A stretch of 64,000 bases of DNA from Ignavibacteria bacterium (GTDB lineage: Bacteria > Bacteroidota > Ignavibacteria > Ignavibacteriales > SURF-24), in assembly GCA_025612245.1 (NCBI GenBank), contig JAAXKQ010000015.1, positions 69,362 to 133,361 of the forward strand. The letters run 5' to 3'. The translations under genes were made by a program, and so were the position numbers. The notes beneath the pieces are model-generated. The model searched no databases. It saw nothing but the letters and a program-made list of their open reading frames with translations, and was not told the DNA's origin. Below are positions 48,678 to 60,325 of the stretch, in pieces. Every line of letters starts with the position of its first letter. Position 1 is the first letter of the stretch.

Positions 48678-49346
48678 TCAAAACGAATACCCCACTCCCA
48701 GGGTTAACTGTGTGGTAGTAAACGACTGGTAATAATCACGCAGATCTCTCGGGCCCTCATCGAACCAGATGGAATGGCTATAGCGCAATTTCAGCTTTGA
48801 GCTGACAAAAAATCCACTGCCTTCGCCAAGCGGCATAGTAAACATTAGGAACCCGTTTACGCCCAGATGTGAAGAAGCTAATTTATCGTCAAGACTGGCC
48901 TGCGAGGAGCCCGTGGTCACCGGAGCGTCGAGCTCGAAAATCCTGTTTACTATAACGAACGAAGGTCCCGCGCCATAGGATAAATACCTGCTGATAGCGC
49001 CCACGTAAGCCAGGTCGAAATTATGACTTACGAGCTTAACATCGCCTCCTATTGTGGGGCCCTGATGCTCGCCGTCGGGATATGTTGTAACATTAAATAC
49101 ATTATCCTTTGTGATCTGGTGATAGCTGTAATCCAGCATCAGGTTAAGGCCGAAGAGATCCTCTTTCTGAAGAGTAAGTCCGTAAAGAATATGTGAGCGG
49201 AATTTATGACCGTCGGTTATAGGGGCGGAATTCTCCGAATTGCCGGCATAATAGCCGTAGCCCGCATTAACGCCTATCCTGTTCTGAGCAAAATAAGGGC
49301 AGGTGAAAGAAAGAATTACCGCAAAAATCAGAATATATTTTTTCAT
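48678..49346 (-). CDS. small outer-membrane beta-barrel protein (hypothetical)
   Basis: Signal peptide, alternating amphipathic beta-strands, C-terminal GVGYSF aromatic terminus. Confidence 0.55.
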   Translation of the reverse strand: MKKYILIFAVILSFTCPYFAQNRIGVNAGYGYYAGNSENSAPITDGHKFRSHILYGLTLQKEDLFGLNLMLDYSYHQITKDNVFNVTTYPDGEHQGPTIGGDVKLVSHNFDLAYVGAISRYLSYGAGPSFVIVNRIFELDAPVTTGSSQASLDDKLASSHLGVNGFLMFTMPLGEGSGFFVSSKLKLRYSHSIWFDEGPRDLRDYYQSFTTTQLTLGVGYSF

Positions 49347-49657
49347 TATTTCACCACCACTGTATAAAGAGTTTTTTTCGAATAATTGCCGCTCTCAATG
49401 CCTCTGGTCTCCATTGTCCAGAAATACAAGCCTTCAGGAAGCTTCATATCATTCGTCTGGATAGAGTAAGCCCCGGGAAGTTGAATGTCATCAACAAGTA
49501 AAGCCACGGTAGTTTTGTAGCTGTTTTCGATGGTTATCCTCACATGTTCCCTTTCAGTAACTTTGTAACTAATTGTAGTTGAGGGGTCGTCCAGGATGGA
49601 CGATTTGCATCCTGCAAAAGCAAAGACGAGCAATAATAACGGAATGGCCAGTTTCAT
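49346..49657 (-). CDS. small lipoprotein (hypothetical), translationally coupled to the downstream OMP gene
   Basis: Lipobox FAFAGCKSS. TAATG stop/start overlap at 49344-49348. Confidence 0.5.
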   Translation of the reverse strand: MKLAIPLLLLVFAFAGCKSSILDDPSTTISYKVTEREHVRITIENSYKTTVALLVDDIQLPGAYSIQTNDMKLPEGLYFWTMETRGIESGNYSKKTLYTVVVK

Positions 49658-49938
49658 AATTTCAATATCTCCGGTAATTATGCAATATTTTGATATTTAG
49701 TTCACAATATTACAAACAAATGTAAAAGTATCAAAATGATTTAGCAGGGGGTTTCGCGTTTTTTGGGATTTATTTGGACGGTTATGCAGGGGGGCAGAAT
49801 GCAGAAAATGGTCATTTAATGAATAATAAAACCGGGCAGACAGGAAAAATACGCAAAAAAATCAAAAAAGATATAATGGGACAAAAAAATACCAATAAAA
49901 CCTTTGGAAAAAAGTCGTTTTTTTCTTAATTTTGTCGT

Positions 49939-50011
49939 GCACCCTTAGCTCAGCTGGTAGAGCATCTGACTCTTAATCAGCAGGTCGCCGGTTCGAATCC
50001 GGCAGGGTGCA
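49939..50011 (+). tRNA. tRNA-Lys (anticodon CTT)
   Basis: Manual cloverleaf. Acceptor gcaccct/agggtgc, D-stem gctc/gagc, anticodon loop cuCUUaa, T-arm gccgg-ttcgaat-ccggc. CCA is not encoded. Confidence 0.9.
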
Positions 50012-50015
50012 CTGC

Positions 50016-50050
50016 TAAAAGCTTCAGTTTCGCAAGAAACTCGAAGCTTT
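50016..50050 (+). terminator. terminator after tRNA-Lys
   Basis: aagcttcagtttcgcaagaaactcgaagcttttttt. Confidence 0.6.
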
Positions 50051-50173
50051 TTTTATTTTAAACCTGACTTTATTCATACTAACCCGGATCGTCTCCGTCA
50101 GCATAAATAAGCCTCCTCTCAATCCCATAAATACTAAGGCCCGCCATAAAGACAGGCCCTAATGAACCTTTTT

Positions 50174-52072
50174 TTAATTTAAGCTTACCTGCGTACCCGC
50201 CTCTTCGGCAGGAGCTTCACCGCTTGGTCCGGCTTCAGCTCCTTTCGGCAGCTTATCCTTTATAATCATCGCAAGAAGAGTATTCACAAGCGAGTTTCCA
50301 TCTGCTCCGCTTCCGCTGCCTCCGGCTACAATGTCCGGAACAAGCTTAAATCCGCTCGTGGCTAGCGCCTTTGCTACTTCTATTGCCGCATAGTTGCCCG
50401 ATTCCATCGACTTTATCTTCATCGTTATAACGTCAGCTTCAGCCGTACCAACAGCCTTGATCTTATCTCCCTCGGCAGCACCTACGGTCTTTAATACCAT
50501 TGCATCTGCTTCGGCATTGATCTTCTTCGATTCTGCCGTACCGCCTGCACTCTTTACAGCCGCCTGCGCTTCAAATTCGCTGATCTGCACTTTACGTTCC
50601 GCATCAACTACCCTCGCCTGCGTATCGGCAAGTGCCCTTGCCTGCTGAAGCTCCTTGCGCGTATCTTCCGCAAGCCGCTGTGTATCGTAAGTAACTTTCT
50701 CCTGCTCCGCTATCTTGCGGTCCGTTAGCGTCTTCATGAGCTCTTCCGGCGGCACTATGTCGCCTATTAAAGTATCAACTGCGCCAACGTTATAATCCTG
50801 CAGCGCTCTTGATATGCTCTGCCTTGCGTCATCCTGACGCTCCTTACGGCCTTTGAGGAATTCAATTACATCAGACCCCTGTGCCGTATTGCGGAAGTAA
50901 TTGCCAATTGTGGGCTCAAGCACCTGCGTAACCAGATTCGCCACGCTTCCGAAACGCGCAATTACCTTCGGGGCATCGGTGCTTGGAATGTGTATAATCT
51001 GACTTACGTCAAGACTGAATGTAAAGCCGTCGGAGGAGCGGACTTTAATTGTTGAGAGCTTTTCATCAAGCTTGTGCGATTCGGTTTTGCCGGTAGCCCA
51101 GTTGAGTACTACGTTCGCTGTAGGCACAATCTCTACTTTATGAGTATATGGATTAATAGGATACTTTCCCGGATCAAGCGGCTTAACCCAAACACCCTTC
51201 TGTCCCCTGCTTACAAGATTTCCATGCTTGAATGTTTCACCCGTAACGTCCACTCCCATATCGCCCACATAGGCAATTACAACGCCCACGTTTGCAATAG
51301 GTACGGTAGTCATTTCTTTGATTTCTACTGTTGCAAATCTTGGATTGATGTAATAACGCCCGGCCAGAATCACCTGCTCCTGAAGTCCCTTGTAGCCGCC
51401 GTTATCGAGGAATATCTGCCCGTCCTGGAAGCTGTTATGCCCGGGTATTTCACGGCCTGCAATTTCTCCGGTCTGCAGCGGCAGGCCTTCGCGTGTAGTA
51501 ACAATGCCCACCATATTGTCATCAATTTCAAGCGCCGCTTCTTCAACAACAGTGAATAGTGAAGTATTGATGCGGTAAGTACCCGGCGGAATAATGGTAA
51601 TTTGCGGACCGCGTTCGCCTCCGTTAAGAAGGAAGTCGCGTGCGCTCTGGAATGAATCGCAGTTCACCTTCTTGGCAAGCACGCGTCCGTCCTTAAGAGG
51701 ATGACCGTCCCTTGCCTCAACGATGCCGATATTGCCTTCTTTGATGTTGATGAATTTCTGTTTGGTAACTTCATACTGCCAGGGCCAGAGCCAGAAATGG
51801 AGCCCCGGCGCAAGAGTATCTGCCTGGTAGCCGGCCTCGCCATTCAGTGCTATAATAGCCCCGTCGGGGAGCATGCGGTGTTTGCCCAGAAGTACGAACT
51901 TTTTATTAACAATGCCTATTGAGTCTTCAGGAATAATAACAATTCCGAAGAATCGTAAAATCAATTTGTTGGCTACTATGAGAAGAATAATAACTATAAT
52001 CCACCAGTAGCTGCCCAGGAAATTTGCCAGTCCCACGTTGCGGCTCCTATAATTGTGATAAAAATACGACAT
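50174..52072 (-). CDS. flotillin family (SPFH/band-7) membrane protein
   Basis: N-terminal TM, SPFH domain, C-terminal Ala/Glu-rich coiled-coil flotillin repeats. 632 aa. Confidence 0.8.
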   Translation of the reverse strand: MSYFYHNYRSRNVGLANFLGSYWWIIVIILLIVANKLILRFFGIVIIPEDSIGIVNKKFVLLGKHRMLPDGAIIALNGEAGYQADTLAPGLHFWLWPWQYEVTKQKFINIKEGNIGIVEARDGHPLKDGRVLAKKVNCDSFQSARDFLLNGGERGPQITIIPPGTYRINTSLFTVVEEAALEIDDNMVGIVTTREGLPLQTGEIAGREIPGHNSFQDGQIFLDNGGYKGLQEQVILAGRYYINPRFATVEIKEMTTVPIANVGVVIAYVGDMGVDVTGETFKHGNLVSRGQKGVWVKPLDPGKYPINPYTHKVEIVPTANVVLNWATGKTESHKLDEKLSTIKVRSSDGFTFSLDVSQIIHIPSTDAPKVIARFGSVANLVTQVLEPTIGNYFRNTAQGSDVIEFLKGRKERQDDARQSISRALQDYNVGAVDTLIGDIVPPEELMKTLTDRKIAEQEKVTYDTQRLAEDTRKELQQARALADTQARVVDAERKVQISEFEAQAAVKSAGGTAESKKINAEADAMVLKTVGAAEGDKIKAVGTAEADVITMKIKSMESGNYAAIEVAKALATSGFKLVPDIVAGGSGSGADGNSLVNTLLAMIIKDKLPKGAEAGPSGEAPAEEAGTQVSLN

Positions 52073-52467
52073 AGAAACTAGATAATTCCCCGTTAATTAG
52101 CAAAGGACTAAAACTTTTCCAATTCCTTCTCTCTGGCTCTTGGTTCTGTGAAAGCTTCACATGAAGGAATTCTAATAGCCTGATATTCGTCTCCGGCATA
52201 TTTTGAGTCGAAAAGCCAGGGGAGCATTCCCGCCGGGTCGTTCAATAAGTAAGGCAATAATGCCCCCAGACTTTTCAATTGCATCAATTGCTTAATATGG
52301 GTATTTATACCCTTTCAGGTATAGTTTAGGTTAATTATCTTGTTTTATACCTTATTGGGTATAATTTTTGCAAAAACACTTGATATTATACCCGAGGTGT
52401 TCAGCCGAAACTTTCTCTTGAAATTGAAAGAGCAGGAAAGGATAGACATAATAAAAGGTTTACAATA

Positions 52468-53172
52468 GTGGGCCTTTGGGGCAATTTCATTTTAAAGCCT
52501 CCAATGGAGGAATATTTTCAGATGCCGGAAATTGAAGATCTGACAATGCATCTGTCTGAGATGTTAAAAATCAGAACAGCTGAGCATACGTTAATACGCC
52601 TTAATTCCGGTGAGCTTGCTTATTTATCAAAACGCTTCGACCGAACCGCAAAAAATAAACTTCAGCTTAAGGATATGGCACAGCTTACCGGTACTCTTAC
52701 AGAACGTAAATACAAAAGTTCCATGGGAAAAATCGGCAAAACAATACTTAAATATTCAAGCTATCCGAAATTTGACCTCCTGACATTTTTCGAACTCACG
52801 GTGTTTTCTTTTCTGACGGGAAACGCAGATATGCACCTGAAGAACTTTTCTCTTCTTACAAACAACGAAGACGAGGTAATGCTTTCTCCAGCTTATGACC
52901 TGCTTTCAACAAAGCTCCTTATTCCGGAAGATACAGAAGAAATGGCTCTTACGTTAAACGAAAAGAAAAGCAATCTTAAGAGAAGGGATTTTGACACGTT
53001 TGCTGAATCACTTCAGATAAACAGCACGTCTGTAAACAACTCATACCGGAAGTTTTTTAGCAGTGAACCTATGATACTTGAGTTTATCGATAAAAGTTTT
53101 TTACAGCCAGAACTCAAAGAGGCTTATAAAAAGCTCTATTCAGAAAAGATTGAAAAACTTAAAAATCAGTGA
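52468..53172 (+). pseudogene. 5'-truncated HipA-like Ser/Thr kinase toxin gene (C-terminal catalytic half only)
   Basis: AYLSKRFDR, DMHLKNFSLL and SPAYDLLS are collinear with E. coli HipA RFDRR / DGHAKNFS / PFYDIIS. The upstream GAQEK P-loop region is absent. Operator-like palindromes sit upstream. Confidence 0.55.
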
Positions 53173-53610
53173 TAAATTGGTAGTATCTAGAATTTAGTGT
53201 AAATGATTTATAATTCAATCCCGGAACGTAGCCCCGAGGGGCGGACAGCGGAGGGATTAAATTTACAGCGACTCTGGAAGTTAACCAGAGGAATTAATAA
53301 ATTAAATCATCTACAAGGAAGAGAGATTATCTCTCTTCTCTATACAGCTTCCCATGCAAGATTATTGAGCAGGTGGTTCATTTTGACTAGGCCCTCAAGT
53401 TCAAGGTCCTTACTCATTATAAGATTATGCATCTGGGCTATAGCATTGGAATTTGACAGCTCGTATTCAAGATTAGATTCTGAGTCATCAACTACTTTAC
53501 AGGCTTTTCTAATGTACTTCTATGCTTTTCAAAGAAAGCTTTAGCTGAAATTACTTCCTTCTTGTCATTCGGCAGTCAAACACCTCCTTAAGACCAGCAA
53601 GATAATATCC

Positions 53611-53997
53611 TCAGTAATAAATAAGATCCTCGTCTTTTTCATCGAACTTCAGGATATTGCTGAAATAGCTTGAGATGCTATTCTTCATAATAACAGGGTC
53701 CTTGGGCTTTACTAATATAAAGTAGTAGCCCGTTTTTTCTTCTTCATATTCTGACCATTTGCTTATTTCTCTAAAACCACTACAATCAATCAATTGTTAG
53801 TCACTGTTACCTATCCAATAATACCCATGACTGTCTTTTGATGCAATAACCATCCAATGTTCTTCATTCTCAACCCTTGCGATGATAGGATAGCCTGTTT
53901 CCAAAGTTTTGCCTATTGCCATCTTGACTTTGGCTTCCTCTTTAATATCACATACCACCGATTCAAGGTCGAACTTGTTTAAGACACGACGAATCAC
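53611..53997 (-). pseudogene. disrupted ORF remnant (two adjacent same-strand fragments separated by a stop)
   Basis: Track ORFs 53797-53997 and 53611-53793 share a strand and are adjacent. Motifs GYPIIARV...HWMVIASKD...NSD are faintly papain/C39_2-like. Confidence 0.25.
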
Positions 53998-54334
53998 ACC
54001 CGCAGATGTACCATATTTTTTGTGACACTTGCGGCCCTATGGCCCATTTCGGAACTTATCGGAAAGCCTAATACAAGTGCTAAGTGTAAAATGGCGTACT
54101 CCCAGCAATCGCCATAGACTTCCTGGTACTTAAACCATACTAGTTCCCTTCGCTTTTAAGTAAGCGGATTAGTTTTTTAATCATTTCATTTACTCCGATT
54201 AGTGATTATAAGGATTTGCCGGGCTTTCCTTTTACTGACATTCTACTTATCCCACTTTTATCCACAGAGAAAATGAAGTAATATACCAGTACTTTTATAA
54301 AATTTTATGGAGTGGACTTCATAATGATGTTAAT

Positions 54335-54367
54335 CTAAAAATAAAAGGGAGATATACTCCCTTTTAT
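54335..54367. terminator. hairpin terminator at the 3' end of the OLD gene
   Basis: aaaagggagatatactcccttttattta. Confidence 0.5.
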
Positions 54368-56263
54368 TTAGCTCTCAATCTCTGCCTTGACAGTATTAAT
54401 AACCATCGGACGCTGCACAAATTCATTAACTCTTCTTAATATATTACGAAGTTCATCCTGAGGATCCCTAATACTGAGAAGTTCTGGAGTCATGTGCTTA
54501 ACTGCCAAAGCATTAAGCCACTTCTTGCATGCAGATTCTTTTTTCTTTTTATTCTCATCATCTAAGCTATCCCATGAATTTGGTGAATCGCTATTTTCCA
54601 ATAGCTTTTGTGCAGCCATTATTGGAACATCATCAAAATCTCCAAACGCAATAACAACTTCTGGCCGAACCCTTTGAACGGCTGTAGGATGAAGGTAGTT
54701 TTCAATCTCTAACTTGGATAAAATATATGCTTCACAGTTGTCTCTGAGATTAGTTTCATCGGCATTTTTTTTGTATTTGGGTTCTTTAGGAGGTATAGTA
54801 TCCCTGTCATAAATATGAATTTCGGGACGATTAAAGCCTTTCAGCCTACTGGTCCAAAGAGCCAGATTAGATCCCCCAAATGGAATGAATATTACAGAAC
54901 CAGCATTTTCCAGATCTTCAAGGTTAGGTATGTCTGGTTCTGTTTGCGCAAGTACCTTAGATATCTCCTTAAAAAAGTTTATATCATTTGGCCCTTCAAC
55001 GCATAAAAACAACTTAACATCATGATCAGCTAATATCCCAAGATCTTTAATTATTCTTTTAATTGTTTCATCATCATCTTTGTGCAGTATTCGCTTCTTA
55101 TCTGCTGTTTTTTCAATATATCTTATGGAGGAAGATGGTATTAAGCGGGCTAATGTAGGCGTGTGTGTAGATATTATCACCTGGCAGTTAGAATTATGGA
55201 CCAATTCAAACAAAGATTCAAGCAACATAACTTGGTTTGTCGGATGCTGAGAGGTTTCTGGTTCTTCAATCGCATATATAATACCTGGCGAATTCCGCTC
55301 GATAGCCTGTTGTTCTGCCTTAGCCCTAAAAAAGTTAATTAAAATTAATCTTCTGACACCACTACCTCGCTTGTTGACAGGGACCTGTGTTTCATCAGTC
55401 AAACTTACCTTAAATATCTTGTCCCATGCAGAATCCAATACTTTCGGGTTTAACTCACTTGCCAGATCTGGATCCATTTCCTTTAATTTGTCAACCGTTG
55501 CCTTACTTACCTTTTCAACTTTCTCCTTAACATTTTGTATAATTTTATCAAGATCGTGCCTTTGGCTTTCCAAAGCTTCTTTGATTGCGACCTTCATAGG
55601 GTCCTGCGCTTCATTGTCCTGGTCTGTGCTTTCTCTATCAGATTTAAACAATGCAAATAAGGGCATTTCTGATTTAATTTTATCCCACATTCTTTTCTGA
55701 TCTTCATCTTTATCTTTTAATTGTATTCGTTGTTCGGCCAATTCAAGATCTGGAAATGAACTCCATATTTTTTGTCTTATCTCGGCCTTAATTGTTTCCT
55801 TAACATCATCAAGACTTACCCCAATATCCTTTGCCCTTTTTCTTAGCTGTGTAATTGTTAGTTGATATAAATCATTGGCATTATCGATGCTAGGATGCAG
55901 AGAATTGAGATAGACTTCCTTTGGCTTTGGTTTTCCACCAGTATATACTTTCACAACTACTAAATTCCCATTTGAATTTAGTAAATACTCATCCTTAAGA
56001 TCTACTACATTTGTTGCATCAATTATTAATGTTTGCGGCACTTCAGTAAATTCACAAGTGATAGTTATATCATCAGAGGCGGAACCAACGCTGATATCGC
56101 CTTGATCCAAAGAGGTATCATTAAAGAATACATTCATTGCATCTAAAATGGCCGACTTACCCGAATCATTCTTAGCAATTAAAGTCGTAAAGTCGTCAAA
56201 CTCAATTTTGAATTTTTCTTTGTAGCATCTGAAGTTTTCAATGGTTAAGGAAACCAGTTTCAT
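54368..56263 (-). CDS. OLD-family ATP-dependent endonuclease (ABC-type ATPase + C-terminal Toprim), standalone class-1-like
   Basis: N-terminal IENFRCY...KNDSGKS Walker A of AAA_15/21 OLD ATPases. IEEPETSQHP signature-like motif. C-terminal Toprim with CVEGPND and YDRD. Confidence 0.8.
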   Translation of the reverse strand: MKLVSLTIENFRCYKEKFKIEFDDFTTLIAKNDSGKSAILDAMNVFFNDTSLDQGDISVGSASDDITITCEFTEVPQTLIIDATNVVDLKDEYLLNSNGNLVVVKVYTGGKPKPKEVYLNSLHPSIDNANDLYQLTITQLRKRAKDIGVSLDDVKETIKAEIRQKIWSSFPDLELAEQRIQLKDKDEDQKRMWDKIKSEMPLFALFKSDRESTDQDNEAQDPMKVAIKEALESQRHDLDKIIQNVKEKVEKVSKATVDKLKEMDPDLASELNPKVLDSAWDKIFKVSLTDETQVPVNKRGSGVRRLILINFFRAKAEQQAIERNSPGIIYAIEEPETSQHPTNQVMLLESLFELVHNSNCQVIISTHTPTLARLIPSSSIRYIEKTADKKRILHKDDDETIKRIIKDLGILADHDVKLFLCVEGPNDINFFKEISKVLAQTEPDIPNLEDLENAGSVIFIPFGGSNLALWTSRLKGFNRPEIHIYDRDTIPPKEPKYKKNADETNLRDNCEAYILSKLEIENYLHPTAVQRVRPEVVIAFGDFDDVPIMAAQKLLENSDSPNSWDSLDDENKKKKESACKKWLNALAVKHMTPELLSIRDPQDELRNILRRVNEFVQRPMVINTVKAEIES

Positions 56264-56464
56264 ATTGACTCCCAGAATAGTATGACAAATGAGTTAATAG
56301 TGAACTATATTCGTGTTCGTTTTTAAGCCATTGTTTTAGAGAATGAATGGAATCACTAAGGAATCAGAATATATAGTAGGAAAAGACAGGCCTTGTTCAT
56401 GGTGTCAGAGTATTTTTTAGATCGGCAGTTAAATTAATATTTATTTTAATGTTAAACAAATTAA

Positions 56465-56492
56465 TCGCCGGTTCGAATCCGGCAGGGTGCAC
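56465..56492 (+). repeat. attR-like direct repeat: copy of the 3' 28 nt of tRNA-Lys
   Basis: Identical to 49985-50012 and followed by a related terminator hairpin. Confidence 0.8.
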
Positions 56493-56874
56493 CAGAAAGC
56501 TTCCGTTCCGCAAGAATTTCGAAGCTTTTTATTTTTATCCTGCGCCGTAGAATTAGATAAGCCCCTTACAACTGCCATGAAATGGCCTTTTATGGAAAAA
56601 CCAATGATGATTAACCTGGGGGCATTTTAATCCTTTCTGATACCCTTTATTGCCATGCTTTTTAAATGCCTCGTGCAATGTGGCGTTGAATCGCCCCAAT
56701 TTTTATGATTATACTTTCCTTATCTTACCTTTTGGCATTTAATTATTATTATCTAAATTTGGGAACAAAAATTCTCCATATGCGTTTTTGTTTCCTTAAA
56801 GATAAGTGACAGATCAGAACCTATTAAACTCTTGGCAACACATATAAAACGCGGCTATATAATTGAGGTTAATA

Positions 56875-57720
56875 ATGATTGTAGGTAAAACAATTCAGAT
56901 ATTTCTTCCTGACGCTAACCCCAGAAGCGTTAAAATTGCAGAAATAACCAGCCGGACCGTTCAGGCGATACTAATCCCAAGAACAAAACTGGATTATATT
57001 TTTGCAAGGGAAGAATTGAATAATGTTGGGGTGTATCTCCTCATTGGAAACCCCGATGAAGACGTAAAACCTTTATTATATATTGGCGAGGCAGAAGATT
57101 GCAAAATCCGGCTTAAACAGCATAATGCTTCAAAAGACTTTTGGAATTACGCAATTGCAATAATCTCCAAAACTCACTACTTCACAAAAACCCACATTAA
57201 ATTTCTTGAATCATTCATGTATCAGGAAGCTAAAAGAATTAACAGATATAAACTGGAAAACAGCACTAATCCCACAATGCCTTATGTATCGGAATCCATG
57301 ACGGCAGATTTAATGGATAACTTTGATACGATAAAAATTCTGGTTTCAACGCTTGGGTTTCCGGTATTTGATGAAATAAAAACAGAACAGAAAGCCGATT
57401 TACTTTACTGTAAAGGCAAAGACGCACATGCAACCGGCCAGCTGACCGATGAAGGCTTCTTGGTATTTTCCGGGTCAAAATGCAACCTGAAGGAAGCAAA
57501 TACCCTTCCCCCATGGGCCACAAAAATGCGCAGGAGACTGATTGAAGAAAAAATATTGCAAGTAAAAGATACCGTGATCGAATTTGCTTCGGACCATCTG
57601 TTTGATTCCCCAAGCGCCGCGGCCACCGCCGTTTTAGCGAGAAATGCAAATGGATGGATAGAATGGAGATATAAGAACAGAAAAACTCTGGATGAAGTAA
57701 AAAGGCAGATTAAAGTATAA
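56875..57720 (+). CDS. GIY-YIG nuclease domain protein with C-terminal DUF4357-like domain
   Basis: GVYLLIGN...LLYIGEAEDCKIRLKQH...N matches GIY-(10)-YIG...R...H..N spacing. C-terminal NGWIEWRY motif. AT-rich like the adjacent island. Confidence 0.65.
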   Translation: MIVGKTIQIFLPDANPRSVKIAEITSRTVQAILIPRTKLDYIFAREELNNVGVYLLIGNPDEDVKPLLYIGEAEDCKIRLKQHNASKDFWNYAIAIISKTHYFTKTHIKFLESFMYQEAKRINRYKLENSTNPTMPYVSESMTADLMDNFDTIKILVSTLGFPVFDEIKTEQKADLLYCKGKDAHATGQLTDEGFLVFSGSKCNLKEANTLPPWATKMRRRLIEEKILQVKDTVIEFASDHLFDSPSAAATAVLARNANGWIEWRYKNRKTLDEVKRQIKV

Positions 57721-57949
57721 AAGGGGACTCGTTTACCCTCCTTGCCCCCTGCTTCTTTATTACAGTAATTTTTAGCCTAAACACGGTAATATTTGCCTTC
57801 AAACGGTAATCCTAACTGCCGTTCCTTACCCCATATTCATTCCGTGCCATGCATAATTTTCAGCAAAAACTTTTTTATGCCTCATCGGGTATAATAACGG
57901 TTCTGCCGCTTCTCCTTGCCTCCAACCGGAGCCCTCCTGCCCCCTTCCT

Positions 57950-60325
57950 CTATTTGCACCGTATTACCATAATCGTTACGTCATCTTCCAACTGCGCTTC
58001 CCCTGCCCAGGAACGACTCTTACTGCATATGTATTCTATTATCTCCCCTGCCGGCTTCTCAGCCGATTCCCTGAAGGCTTCTGCCGCCCTCTCCATCCCA
58101 AATGTCTCCTTGCTTTCATTGAACATCTCAATTAAACCGTCACTCATAACCAGTATCACGTCACCATGGCATAATTCAGCCGTAAGTTTTTTGTACGGAA
58201 AATCATTGAACGCCCCGAGAGGCATCCCCTTTACCAGTAACTCCTCAACCTCGCCCGTTTGCTTCCTGTAAATCTGCATCGGCGGCATCCCGGCCGATAC
58301 ATACTCAATTTTATTTCCATCTATCCTTAATAACGACATGCACATCGTCAGCATGTACAGGTTCATCTGCTTTATTGACCGGTTGAATGAATTCATTATC
58401 TCAATCAGGCTTTCCTTATGAGCCAGAGTGTTGAATAACCCCTTTGCCAGAATTACCATGTTCCCTGCTTTCAGGCCGTGCCCCGTTGCATCCCCGATAA
58501 CCGCCGTAAGACGCCTGTTTTCTCCCGCGTGAAAATCGTAATAATCGCCTCCTACTTCTGTTGCCGTCTTCATGTAACAGGCAATCTCCAGGTTCTCTGC
58601 CTGAGGCACATCCCGCGGTAGCAGCGATAACTGCAGTTCCCGCGCCGCATCTAGCTCTTTTGTCTTTCGCTGGCTCTCTGCTTCAATCAGCCTCCTCTCA
58701 ATCTCAAGCGACGCGGCAACCCTCTCCTGCTCAATTGCTTTTTCCGATAAATCCTTCACTTTCTCAAGCTGCCACTCCAGGTCTTTATTGATCGTTGCAA
58801 AATTATATGACAGGTACAGCGACATCGCTATTACAAAACCTATCATTCCGTAAACATATACCTGCTGAAGCCCGAAGACGTCCATTATCGAAAAGTCCAC
58901 CAATAGCTGCAGTATAATGGAAACGCTCATTACCAAAAAGCCGGGTATAATTATCCAGGTACCTCTGTGGCATATCTTGTCCTTCCTGAACCCCGCATAA
59001 AACCCTTCAATGAGCGTAAAGGAAAACTGAAAATAAATAAAGTACGATGTTACACTCGGGGAAATGTCCAAAAATCCCGACACGGAAACCGCAATGTATA
59101 GCGCCAGGTACAGGACCCACCTTTTGGGAAGTCTCTCGTAGTTGAAGGAATATAGCGTAAGTACTGCAAAAAAGATGGCCGTGGAGGCCGATAATACGTT
59201 CAGCCGCTGAAGAAATACCATCATTGCGGCGTCTTCAATCATGAAGCGCTCATAGTTGAAATACGTCAACCCCGCAAAGCCTAAAAGGCATATTGCATAG
59301 TAAAGGTTCTGCTTCTGCCTCCTGAAAAAGAAAAAAAGAGATAGATGCAGAAAGGATAATATTAACGGTATAAGAGTAAATACCATCTGGTGAATTGTAT
59401 ATGGCCGCAGCGCTTCAGTTGAATTGAATGCTGAGTTAAGGTCAATGAGCAGAATTGAAAACCCGGCATCAAACCCCTGATTCCTCTGCGTGGCTGCTTC
59501 ATAGTTTGCATACCTGACCGCAATTACCTGCTCTTCTTTGGGATCGAATGTAAATTCCATCCAGTTGTTTTTGGGAGCGGGTGAGTACCCGGAGTCCTTT
59601 GGCGCAACTTTCCCGAATTTTTTAAGCAGCCGCCCGTTGTAATAAACTTCCGACGCCCCAAACTGCGTCAGCTTAAACCCTACGGCCTTATTCCACAGCG
59701 CCTTGTCCACGTGCAGGCGTGCCCTGAACCATCCGGTATTCTTCCAGTTCAGATCATAGTAATTCTCGCTTACAAAGTTGGAGGAGGCGGTTTTCCAAAG
59801 ACTGTCATTCAGGTCCGCCCGGGCCCACTCGGCGTTATCTCCCTCGTGGTACTTCCAGTTATTTACAAACCTTATCCCGCTCTGGGCCCCGTATATGTAC
59901 TCCGGCGTTACATTTCTTGCACCTACGTATTTTCCCCAGTTACTTATCTTTATTATAACCGTGGTATCTTTCCTAACCTTCAGCCTGGCGTTATCCAGTA
60001 TCCAGCCGTCGGCGTTGAGCGCTTCCGAGTTCCAGCTTCCAAGCGTAAGCTTAAACTCCAGGCTCTCGCCTTCTTTGAACTGAAGAGTTTTTGTCCATAC
60101 CGAATCCGACTGCCTCTCAAGCCTTACGGCAGCGGGGTTCCATTTCCCAAGCCCGGTGCTGCTGCCCGTAAGAAAGACGTCATCCGAACGCAACGCTTTT
60201 TGGGAAATTACCTTAAAGCTTACCAGCTTCTTTTGTCCGGAAGGTACACTGCATCCGGCGCTGAACAGACAGACACAAAATAAAGCTGTAAGGCAAAACT
60301 TAAATTTCCTGCGGAATACAAACAT
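57950..60325 (-). CDS. 7TMR-DISM sensor with N-terminal CBM20-like module and C-terminal PP2C/SpoIIE-type serine phosphatase
   Basis: Signal peptide, starch-binding-like beta-sandwich, 7TMR-DISMED2-like extracellular domain, 7 TM helices, coiled coil. PP2C motifs GDYYDF, DATGHG and MSDGL. Confidence 0.75.
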   Translation of the reverse strand: MFVFRRKFKFCLTALFCVCLFSAGCSVPSGQKKLVSFKVISQKALRSDDVFLTGSSTGLGKWNPAAVRLERQSDSVWTKTLQFKEGESLEFKLTLGSWNSEALNADGWILDNARLKVRKDTTVIIKISNWGKYVGARNVTPEYIYGAQSGIRFVNNWKYHEGDNAEWARADLNDSLWKTASSNFVSENYYDLNWKNTGWFRARLHVDKALWNKAVGFKLTQFGASEVYYNGRLLKKFGKVAPKDSGYSPAPKNNWMEFTFDPKEEQVIAVRYANYEAATQRNQGFDAGFSILLIDLNSAFNSTEALRPYTIHQMVFTLIPLILSFLHLSLFFFFRRQKQNLYYAICLLGFAGLTYFNYERFMIEDAAMMVFLQRLNVLSASTAIFFAVLTLYSFNYERLPKRWVLYLALYIAVSVSGFLDISPSVTSYFIYFQFSFTLIEGFYAGFRKDKICHRGTWIIIPGFLVMSVSIILQLLVDFSIMDVFGLQQVYVYGMIGFVIAMSLYLSYNFATINKDLEWQLEKVKDLSEKAIEQERVAASLEIERRLIEAESQRKTKELDAARELQLSLLPRDVPQAENLEIACYMKTATEVGGDYYDFHAGENRRLTAVIGDATGHGLKAGNMVILAKGLFNTLAHKESLIEIMNSFNRSIKQMNLYMLTMCMSLLRIDGNKIEYVSAGMPPMQIYRKQTGEVEELLVKGMPLGAFNDFPYKKLTAELCHGDVILVMSDGLIEMFNESKETFGMERAAEAFRESAEKPAGEIIEYICSKSRSWAGEAQLEDDVTIMVIRCK

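Follow-up and report, generated by a model that had tools for sequence, protein, structure and literature searches.

A stand-alone OLD-family ATPase-Toprim protein with a probable defence role beside a tRNA-Lys gene of an Ignavibacteria bacterium

Stand-alone Class 1 proteins are the least understood branch of the OLD family, which is also behind Gabija, some retrons and PARIS. Two of them, TsOLD of Thermus scotoductus and the archetypal Old of phage P2 (P2 Old), combine an N-terminal ABC ATPase with a C-terminal Toprim domain in a single polypeptide, in P2 Old as single-gene cargo of the lysogenic-conversion type. Phenotypes are on record only for P2 Old, Vc OLD of Vibrio cholerae and YbjD (OldB) of E. 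coli, and trigger and substrate already differ among these three. P2 Old is a tRNA anticodon-arm nuclease that is triggered by RecBCD inhibition, has tRNA-Thr as its substrate and severs anticodon stems after ATP hydrolysis (PMC12445682). Phage defence has been demonstrated for Vc OLD, which, as does TsOLD, cuts or nicks DNA (Vc OLD: PMC12392090). YbjD gives anti-phage phenotypes for which its Toprim domain is dispensable (PMC13261556), and the AriB effector of PARIS cleaves tRNA (PMC11464382). Here we describe a gene of this family in a 64,000-nucleotide (nt) stretch of an Ignavibacteria bacterium assembly (GenBank GCA_025612245.1, contig JAAXKQ010000015.1, positions 69,362 to 133,361 of the forward strand), referred to below as the window. 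The 631-amino-acid (aa) product is very probably an OLD-family ATPase-Toprim protein. We propose that it probably serves in defence as a self-contained OLD enzyme, in which an ABC (AAA_15) ATPase is fused to a Toprim nuclease with a helical bundle at its end.

An initial annotation of the window, made by a model from the letters alone, had described the gene as a standalone OLD-family ATPase/Toprim nuclease carried as island cargo for putative anti-phage defence. A 631-aa protein with OLD/GajA hallmarks is indeed encoded there: the open reading frame (ORF) is uninterrupted through all 631 codons, and every motif that had been quoted stands at the position at which it was checked. The guanine-cytosine (GC) content of the gene is 36.6%, that of the window 45.4%. 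A metagenome-assembled genome of Ignavibacteria encodes an identical protein (P0001), labelled just ‘ATP-binding protein’. The gene looks monocistronic because it has its own 3′ hairpin and its start codon is preceded by an AT-rich spacer of about 200 base pairs (bp). The hairpin is absent from the list of a consensus promoter/terminator scanner, and the promoter scan was uninformative, with 11 promoter-like sites found and 12 expected.

54368..56263, minus strand: complete OLD-family gene, 631 aa plus stop; ATG-to-TAA ORF, apparently monocistronic
54335..54367, minus strand: intrinsic-terminator-like hairpin AAAAGGGAG-TATAT-CTCCCTTTT, then ATTTTT, immediately 3′ of the TAA stop; read from the sequence

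The N-terminal half matches Pfam AAA_15, which aligns end to end with residues 1-372 (E=1.2e-75, 256 bits) and is overlapped by weaker matches to AAA_21, AAA_23 and DUF2813. Conservation was assessed in an alignment (A1) of 33 full-length homologues of 45-62% identity from several phyla, in which the residues of the quoted motifs are either invariant or conserved to at least 90%. Because the AAA_15 match runs end to end and the residues are conserved in 33 homologues, the motifs cannot be put down to chance. The searches did not place the protein among RecF/SbcC-like housekeeping ATPases that lack a Toprim domain, the finding that would have spoken against the initial annotation; matches of SMC/RecF/Rad50 type are confined to the first 45-55 residues around the P-loop and score far under curated cut-offs. 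The features of this half are as follows.

55079..56263, minus strand: N-terminal ABC ATPase domain of AAA_15 type, residues 1-395 (Pfam match over 1-372), with a helical insert at about 212-270
56150..56179, minus strand: Walker A (P-loop) IAKNDSGKSA, residues 29-38 (K36); G35, K36 and S37 invariant in A1
55598..55654, minus strand: family-specific acidic motif ALFKSDRESTDQDNEAQDP, residues 204-222; conservation taken from A1
55241..55282, minus strand: Walker B and D-loop IIYAIEEPETSQHP, residues 328-341; E333, E334, P335, E336, H340 and P341 invariant
55157..55177, minus strand: H-loop IISTHTP, residues 363-369 (H367); T366 and H367 invariant in A1

When the A1 profile was compared with solved structures, TsOLD (6P74) ranked best (E=1.4e-18), with PtuA and GajA (1e-12), AriA (5e-5) and the OLD protein of retron Eco8 (2e-4) at lower ranks. 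The segment IENFRCY stands at residues 8-14, and the P-loop with K36 aligns with the TsOLD P-loop that bears K34. Walker B and D-loop align without gaps to TsOLD ‘IIEEPEMYLHP’, and the gap-free alignment continues from Walker B to the H-loop, setting E333, H340 and H367 on TsOLD E276, H283 and H310. The TsOLD residues K34, E276, H283 and H310 are needed for ATP hydrolysis (PMC7049728). The Walker A Lys, the Walker B Glu of ‘EEPE’, the D-loop His and the H-loop His thus occupy identical alignment positions in the two proteins, and the ATPase catalytic set K36, E333, H340 and H367 is intact, with all four residues invariant in A1.

The ATPase has two further motifs. An acidic stretch with the consensus FKSDRxSTDQDxEAQDP (residues 206-222) is strikingly conserved, with F206, D209, R210, S212, D214, Q215, D216, E218, D221 and P222 invariant; model confidence is low in its loop 212-216 and in the helical insert at about 212-270. 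R210 is a plausible equivalent of the Q-loop residue, since an Arg at this position is common among Class 1 OLD proteins (PMC7049728). A signature-like motif, RGSGxRR (residues 299-305), is invariant in A1 and well kept in this protein family, whereas the signature motifs of Class 1 proteins have been described as degenerate (PMC7049728).

The C-terminal half is divergent, and its assignment as an OLD-type Toprim draws on three independent lines, namely predicted fold, motif geometry and transitive homology. Its features are the following.

54371..55078, minus strand: C-terminal region, residues 396-631; divergent OLD-type Toprim core at about 418-530, then a helical bundle at about 546-617
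54980..55012, minus strand: predicted Toprim strand 1 with metal-binding Glu/Asp, LFLCVEGPNDI, residues 418-428; E423, G424 and D427 invariant
54797..54823, minus strand: predicted Toprim DxD motif, EIHIYDRDT, residues 481-489 (D486, D488); D486 invariant, D488 at least 90% conserved
54686..54724, minus strand: second acidic cluster ILSKLEIENYLHP (E519, E521, Y523, H525); E521, Y523 and H525 invariant, E519 and N522 at least 90% conserved
54509..54544, minus strand: conserved basic helix KKESACKKWLNA (K580, N584) in the C-terminal bundle; K580 and N584 invariant

With respect to fold, an AlphaFold2 model of the whole protein was obtained at a predicted local distance difference test score (pLDDT) of 81, with blocks of the C-terminal half above 90. 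Structural prediction had been suggested as a check on the annotation, and it came out in favour: in Foldseek the whole model has TsOLD (6p74) and GajA on top (E=2e-16), in alignments that cover both domains. The model of the C-terminal half alone finds OLD Toprim domains best, and its top five matches are C-terminal regions of Class 2 OLD proteins, aligned along their whole length at a template-modelling score of about 0.5. The elements expected of a Toprim fold with a two-metal site are there: strand 1 leads into a Glu and strand 3 into the DxD, and a second acidic cluster follows. Four helices follow the core at residues 546-617, with pLDDT above 90.

With respect to geometry, E423 comes directly after the model strand 418-422 and D427 four residues on, a spacing (E-x3-D) identical to that of TsOLD E377/D381 and of E400/E404 in the Class 2 protein of B. 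pseudomallei (Bp). D486-x-D488 closes the model strand 481-485, which would place it at the position of TsOLD D431/D433, whose spacing it shares. E519-x-E521 follows the model strand 510-514 as TsOLD S478/E480 follows strand 4, and the cluster holds candidate ligands of metal B. In Class 2 OLD enzymes the catalytic Lys (Bp K562) comes from a helical domain that TsOLD does not have (PMC7049728). One hypothesis is that the invariant K580, in a helix (569-590) predicted at pLDDT above 90, could be the counterpart of Bp K562. The acidic set E423/D427, D486/D488 and E519/E521 is intact and is conserved throughout the family.

With respect to homology, phmmer aligned ‘vEGPnd’ with GajA ‘iEGPSE’, and hhalign set the E423 motif on P2 Old ‘VEGKTE’ with a probability of 96%, in an alignment that runs from the signature motif via Walker B and the H-loop to the Glu of the Toprim ‘VEG’. 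A bridge is provided by 608-aa homologues on plasmids, which are 32-35% identical to our protein over residues 1-546 or 1-568 and which PF20469 (OLD-like_TOPRIM) matches at residues 423-494 with 29 bits, above its gathering cut-off of 23.2 bits.

Several observations weigh against reading the gene as a defence nuclease. Residues 385-631 match no Pfam family at E<=10, PF20469 and DUF4435 included; NCBIfam matches stop by residue 380; a profile of 18 C-terminal sequences (A2) has no match at E<=10 among all PDB sequences; and PADLOC reaches this half with one weak GajA model only (E=1.5e-4). As PF20469 worked in positive controls, with scores of 64.6 bits for P2 Old and 59.8 bits for E. coli YbjD, membership of the Toprim family by sequence is therefore transitive only. 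The second Asp of the DxD is replaced in a few relatives, among them full-length homologues (YSE, DRG) and stand-alone domain proteins (DRE, DGE or DRV). Assignment as a nuclease comes via predicted structure, motif positions and transitive homology rather than by direct profile search, and the equivalences for metal B and the catalytic Lys/Arg are putative. OLD proteins are also not always defensive: archaeal Cran1, an OLD-family ATPase, is a cell-cycle factor, and YbjD, as noted above, can do without its Toprim for its phenotype. In the literature we found no experiment on this protein or any member of its subfamily, no publication on the subfamily and none for the accession of its E. coli plasmid homologue, although the large PSI-BLAST tree of Patel and Seed may include it.

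Under the context-based scheme the protein is a Class 1 OLD, a stand-alone gene with no conserved partner, and tests for the context and domains of Classes 2, 3 and 4 all came out negative. No UvrD-like helicase, reverse transcriptase or AriB-like gene lies near it. For Class 3, the match to the NCBIfam model of the retron Eco8 effector, at 31 bits, stays below the cut-off of 250 bits, the ORFs on either side encode no reverse transcriptase, and Rfam at the gathering threshold returned only tRNA-Lys from 49000-58500. Among the OLD-type models of PADLOC, the best is Old with 86 bits, the GajA models reaching at most 70 bits. The profile searches proposed with the initial annotation were thus answered in part, with AAA_15 and PADLOC Old matching as foreseen and the OLD Toprim model, PF20469, giving no match.

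Within Class 1, TsOLD is the closest relative in the PDB both by profile and by whole-model Foldseek, at the E-values given above. The two differ in that sequence likeness is limited to the ATPase motifs, the Toprim halves being unalignable by sequence, and in that TsOLD, at about 528 aa against 631 aa here, is without the C-terminal helical domain. The compact TsOLD-type C-terminus, in which a loop supplies the catalytic Arg/Lys, is not found in our protein; this trait describes TsOLD and does not define Class 1. P2 Old shares the two-domain architecture, yet pairwise BLASTP gives E=1e-7 over ATPase motifs only, and OLD-like_TOPRIM scores it at 65 bits with none for our protein; P2 was not recovered by tblastn of the phage collection at E<=1e-3. 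The likening to P2 Old-type systems in the initial annotation stands for architecture and gene context, and falls short on sequence and on the C-terminus, which resembles Class 2 more than TsOLD. Vc OLD, compared by its published description only, and YbjD are likewise chromosomal stand-alone genes and offer a precedent for phage restriction by a single gene, although YbjD differs in its pairwise match (E=0.005), its DUF2813 ATPase subtype and its direct match to PF20469.

The ATPase is nearest to TsOLD and the C-terminal architecture is nearest to Class 2. In the Class 2 OLD proteins (B. pseudomallei 6NK8, Xanthomonas 6NJV) and GajA, a helical bundle with a Lys, K562 beside the invariant K580 here, also follows the Toprim core. 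Identity to these proteins is 14-17%, and GajA hidden Markov models match weakly. The likeness invites the suggestion of an orphaned GajA of Gabija (Class 2) that has lost GajB or is separated from it, and would be inactive alone or act with a distant helicase. The helical domain of the C-terminal region fits it, as do the many GajA PADLOC models that match partially, one of them into the Toprim region at the E-value given above. Those models cover mostly the ATPase, however, and no GajB/UvrD-like gene adjoins the gene in the window, as the initial annotation had already observed, or any of the eight other homologue contexts. The single gene is kept at full length across phyla, as befits an autonomous unit and not a remnant, and we consider an orphaned GajA extremely improbable.

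A second alternative comes from the top PADLOC match, which is an ‘AriA’ model (218 bits, full length). PARIS (AriA/AriB, Class 4) also pairs an AAA_15-type ATPase with a Toprim effector, and fused ariAB genes are documented (PMC11464382, PMC12392090); in a merged form, the AriA-like ATPase would sense an anti-restriction protein and free or activate a tRNA-cleaving Toprim. As the C-terminal domain also occurs on its own, split versions are conceivable. However, the AriA models of PADLOC equal AAA_15 and AAA_21 in length (373 and 304 positions) and act like general ATPase models; the same AriA model reaches 253 bits with a homologue devoid of any Toprim. Our ATPase profile is much nearer to TsOLD (1e-18) than to AriA (5e-5), the C-terminus gives no match to the DUF4435/AriB signature even at E<=10, and its fold is nearer to Class 2 and Class 1 OLD than to AriB. 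Moreover, the one stand-alone copy of the domain that was examined adjoins an IetA-like AAA+ ATPase and not an AAA_15 protein. Altogether a merged PARIS is very unlikely.

The gene is, in our assessment, a divergent yet fairly ordinary example of a known OLD kind. One could instead see in the Class 1 context, the TsOLD-like ATPase and the Class 2-like C-terminus a distinct, unnamed OLD subclass, a view that we put forward only tentatively. If it were true, the C-terminal module would be an exchangeable nuclease effector, trigger and substrate (e.g. tRNA) could be its own, and defence-annotation tools might miss or mislabel such proteins.

Homologues are numerous. At E<=1e-5, the protein matches more than 5,000 others in the databases, mostly over the ATPase only; the best 120 matches have full length (about 600-640 aa), are 46-62% identical and come from very different bacteria. 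A profile of the C-terminal region, searched against 1.84 billion cluster representatives, gave 1,102 matches (about 1,100 clusters at 50% identity), most of the long ones sharing an architecture of about 620 aa. Because these matches stop short of the canonical OLD/GajA Toprims, the region is a sequence family of its own; Pfam has no model for it, either in our protein or in ten other carriers of the domain. Hosts of the subfamily include Ignavibacteria, Desulfobacterota and Gammaproteobacteria, and its members are found on IncHI/IncF plasmids of Enterobacteriaceae and as Tn7-like cargo. In the plasmid collection, homologues occur on 373 records, 293 of them conjugative. The 608-aa homologues WP_001239419 and WP_001239408, labelled ‘AAA family ATPase’, are widespread on large enterobacterial plasmids, with examples on a Salmonella IncHI plasmid (NZ_CP060838.1; locus L094, 5001-6827) and an E. 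coli IncF plasmid (locus L011, 6001-7827).

Both halves of the protein behave as exchangeable modules, the sensor ATPase being recombined with other effectors, because the C-terminal domain occurs elsewhere and the ATPase occurs with an unrelated C-terminus. In the phage collection there is no full-length homologue, and the best match covers the ATPase only and ends in another C-terminus. The C-terminal domain is possibly an unrecognised nuclease effector module. It makes up proteins of about 230-240 aa by itself (P0203, P0204, P0265) and is fused in proteins of about 406 aa (P0208, P0236) to a signal-peptide, coiled-coil and transmembrane N-terminus, in both cases with no Pfam family. The 241-aa P0203 (locus L097, 448-1173) lies in an operon with a DUF2997 gene and an IetA-like AAA+ ATPase gene. 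A close homologue of the ATPase half in ‘Bacteriophage sp.’ MT836961.1 from human faeces (locus L013, 3770-5548; 40% identity over residues 1-392) has a different, non-Toprim C-terminus of about 130 aa with an ‘HQIHHPEN’ motif.

Comparison of nine independent contexts, the window and eight homologue settings, revealed no neighbour in common, a pattern that is that of an autonomous, horizontally mobile accessory gene. The eight settings are listed below.

Marinobacter chromosome
Desulfocarbo chromosome
Marine metagenome lineage
JGI contig with PIN/MazE, GIY-YIG and DUF4238
Bacteroidota-like contig with DUF2130 and a DNA methylase
Salipiger conjugative plasmid, gene adjoining DUF262
E. coli IncF plasmid, gene between a recombinase and IS110
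Salmonella IncHI plasmid, gene adjoining Tn7-like TnsD and the sil silver-resistance operon

A role outside defence could be argued from the same distribution, with the protein acting as a competition or maintenance factor of mobile elements (stabilising plasmids or transposons, or excluding rival elements), or as a cellular ATPase of DNA transactions (as Cran1, or of RecF/Rad50 type). Many relatives reside on conjugative plasmids or travel as Tn7-like cargo, the N-terminus weakly matches Rad50, RecF and SMC models, Cran1 is a precedent as a cell-cycle factor, and the phage phenotype of YbjD does not depend on its Toprim. On the other hand, the matches to Rad50, RecF and SMC are the short, sub-threshold P-loop matches described above, and a patchy distribution in variable, AT-rich neighbourhoods is unlike that of a housekeeping gene. 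Neighbours of defence or toxin type point the same way, and activity against plasmids would in itself count as defence. We therefore hold a non-defence role to be unlikely. The PADLOC defence candidate PDC-S14 next to our gene and the toxin- and defence-type neighbours of homologues support a defence context, and we favour a defence role for the protein, an anti-phage function being suggested by family and context.

In the likely mechanism the protein would be an ATP-gated Toprim nuclease by which phage replication is arrested or the infected cell killed. By analogy with TsOLD, P2 Old, Vc OLD, GajA and PARIS, it would probably form a homo-oligomer via the helical insert of its ATPase. The ATPase head may serve as a sensor or switch, nucleotide binding or hydrolysis gating the nuclease. 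Upon a phage-derived cue, the two-metal Toprim site would cut nucleic acid, either DNA, which could be nicked or degraded as by Vc OLD and TsOLD, or the region of the tRNA anticodon stem-loop, as by P2 Old and AriB. Phage replication would then be blocked or the infected cell would die.

For the window itself the result is modest, plausibly a defence gene in a decayed tRNA-Lys island. The added value lies in the characterisation of a widespread, poorly annotated OLD branch: a large and phylogenetically broad single-gene subfamily whose nuclease half is invisible to standard domain models and whose members NCBI labels only ‘ATP-binding protein’ or ‘AAA family ATPase’. Should these proteins protect against phages, present surveys under-count OLD systems. 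The enterobacterial plasmid homologues WP_001239408 and WP_001239419 would be convenient experimental entry points.

The AT-rich, tRNA-linked setting that the initial annotation had given the gene is real, the stretch 52073-57949 having 37.5% GC. A tRNA-Lys gene and an exact 28-nt direct repeat of its 3′ end delimit a segment (50013-56492) that holds the OLD gene.

49939..50012, plus strand: tRNA-Lys, anticodon CTT, at one insertion border (ARAGORN; Rfam tRNA, 73 bits)
56465..56492, plus strand: exact 28-nt direct repeat of the tRNA-Lys 3′ end, resembling an attachment (att) site, about 200 bp upstream of the OLD start codon
50174-52072, minus strand: SPFH/Band-7 protein, 632 aa, with a host-like GC of 49%, inside the repeat-bounded segment

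The repeat has two exact copies and none in 100 shuffles, and beside it positions 56496-56536 are 85% identical to the tRNA terminator at 50018-50058; a repeat together with a terminator copy is what integration into a tRNA gene classically leaves behind. ARAGORN also called a ‘tRNA-???’ at 56410-56494 (plus strand) with a 4-base anticodon. This was rejected as a tRNA, since only its last 28-30 nt are tRNA-Lys-like and Rfam gives no match.

The claim of island cargo holds up as far as a tRNA-Lys-linked, AT-rich insertion is concerned, and meets with three objections beyond that. A Pfam scan of five ORFs of 50013-56492, not of the shorter ones there, yielded no recombinase domain, and neither an integrase nor pseudogene remnants turned up in 52073-54367. 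The repeat-bounded segment includes the SPFH gene with its host-like GC, and AT-rich DNA runs beyond the repeat to about 57900. Because no integrase was found and a gene of host-like GC lies inside, the island is degraded or composite. A synteny test of its borders, for which 80 loci were retrieved via the SPFH protein, allowed no empty site to be reconstructed. The closest relative available, a 5.5-kb contig, carries another tRNA-Lys 3′ fragment with terminator about 2 kb from its SPFH gene (locus L014, 4180-4289), which suggests that the tRNA-Lys site is a hotspot of stacked, decaying insertions rather than the site of one clean element. SPFH homologues of 65-79% identity occur in Ignavibacteriota, Bacteroidota, Acidobacteriota, Verrucomicrobiota and Gemmatimonadota, in Saccharibacteria bins and even in a Methanoregulaceae bin; their flanks are not conserved, which suggests frequent horizontal transfer.

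Such decay could mean that the OLD gene itself is an inactive relic retained by chance, given the missing integrase and the adjacent truncated HipA gene and stop-broken frame. Against this, its 631-codon ORF is uninterrupted, every residue invariant in the family is retained and the gene has its own terminator-like hairpin. That it is a relic is most improbable.

The neighbours other than the SPFH gene are an ORF with a truncated HipA gene (HipA_C), a frame broken into 66+60 aa and a GIY-YIG/DUF4357 gene, in agreement with the initial statement that no GajB or other partner is adjacent.

53611-53997, minus strand: frame of 66 + 60 aa split by a single TAA; no Pfam family; pseudogene or read-through candidate
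52468..53172, plus strand: ORF with the HipA C-terminal domain only, 234 aa, GTG start (Pfam HipA_C, E=9e-39, profile positions 22-203 of 213)
56863..57720, plus strand: GIY-YIG + DUF4357 (+RAMA-like) gene (Pfam; PADLOC PDC-S14, E=4e-108), just outside the repeat-bounded segment

The broken frame is separated from the 3′ end of the OLD gene by 370 bp of non-coding DNA. Upstream of the OLD gene, past the tRNA fragment, the GIY-YIG/DUF4357 gene is a second putative defence gene at the locus; it does not stand beside homologues elsewhere and is context, not a partner. The HipA_C ORF, upstream of which neither the N-terminal domains of HipA nor hipB were found, is probably a truncated toxin-kinase gene, and it has weak PADLOC PDC-M03A matches. 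Just 5′ of it lie two copies of a 23-nt palindrome of the type TTTTATACC-N5-GGGTATAAT (52303-52325 and 52343-52365). A third copy, 5.5 kb away, is found between the PDC-S14 and SpoIIE-phosphatase genes (57873-57895). The palindrome resembles an operator of HipB type.

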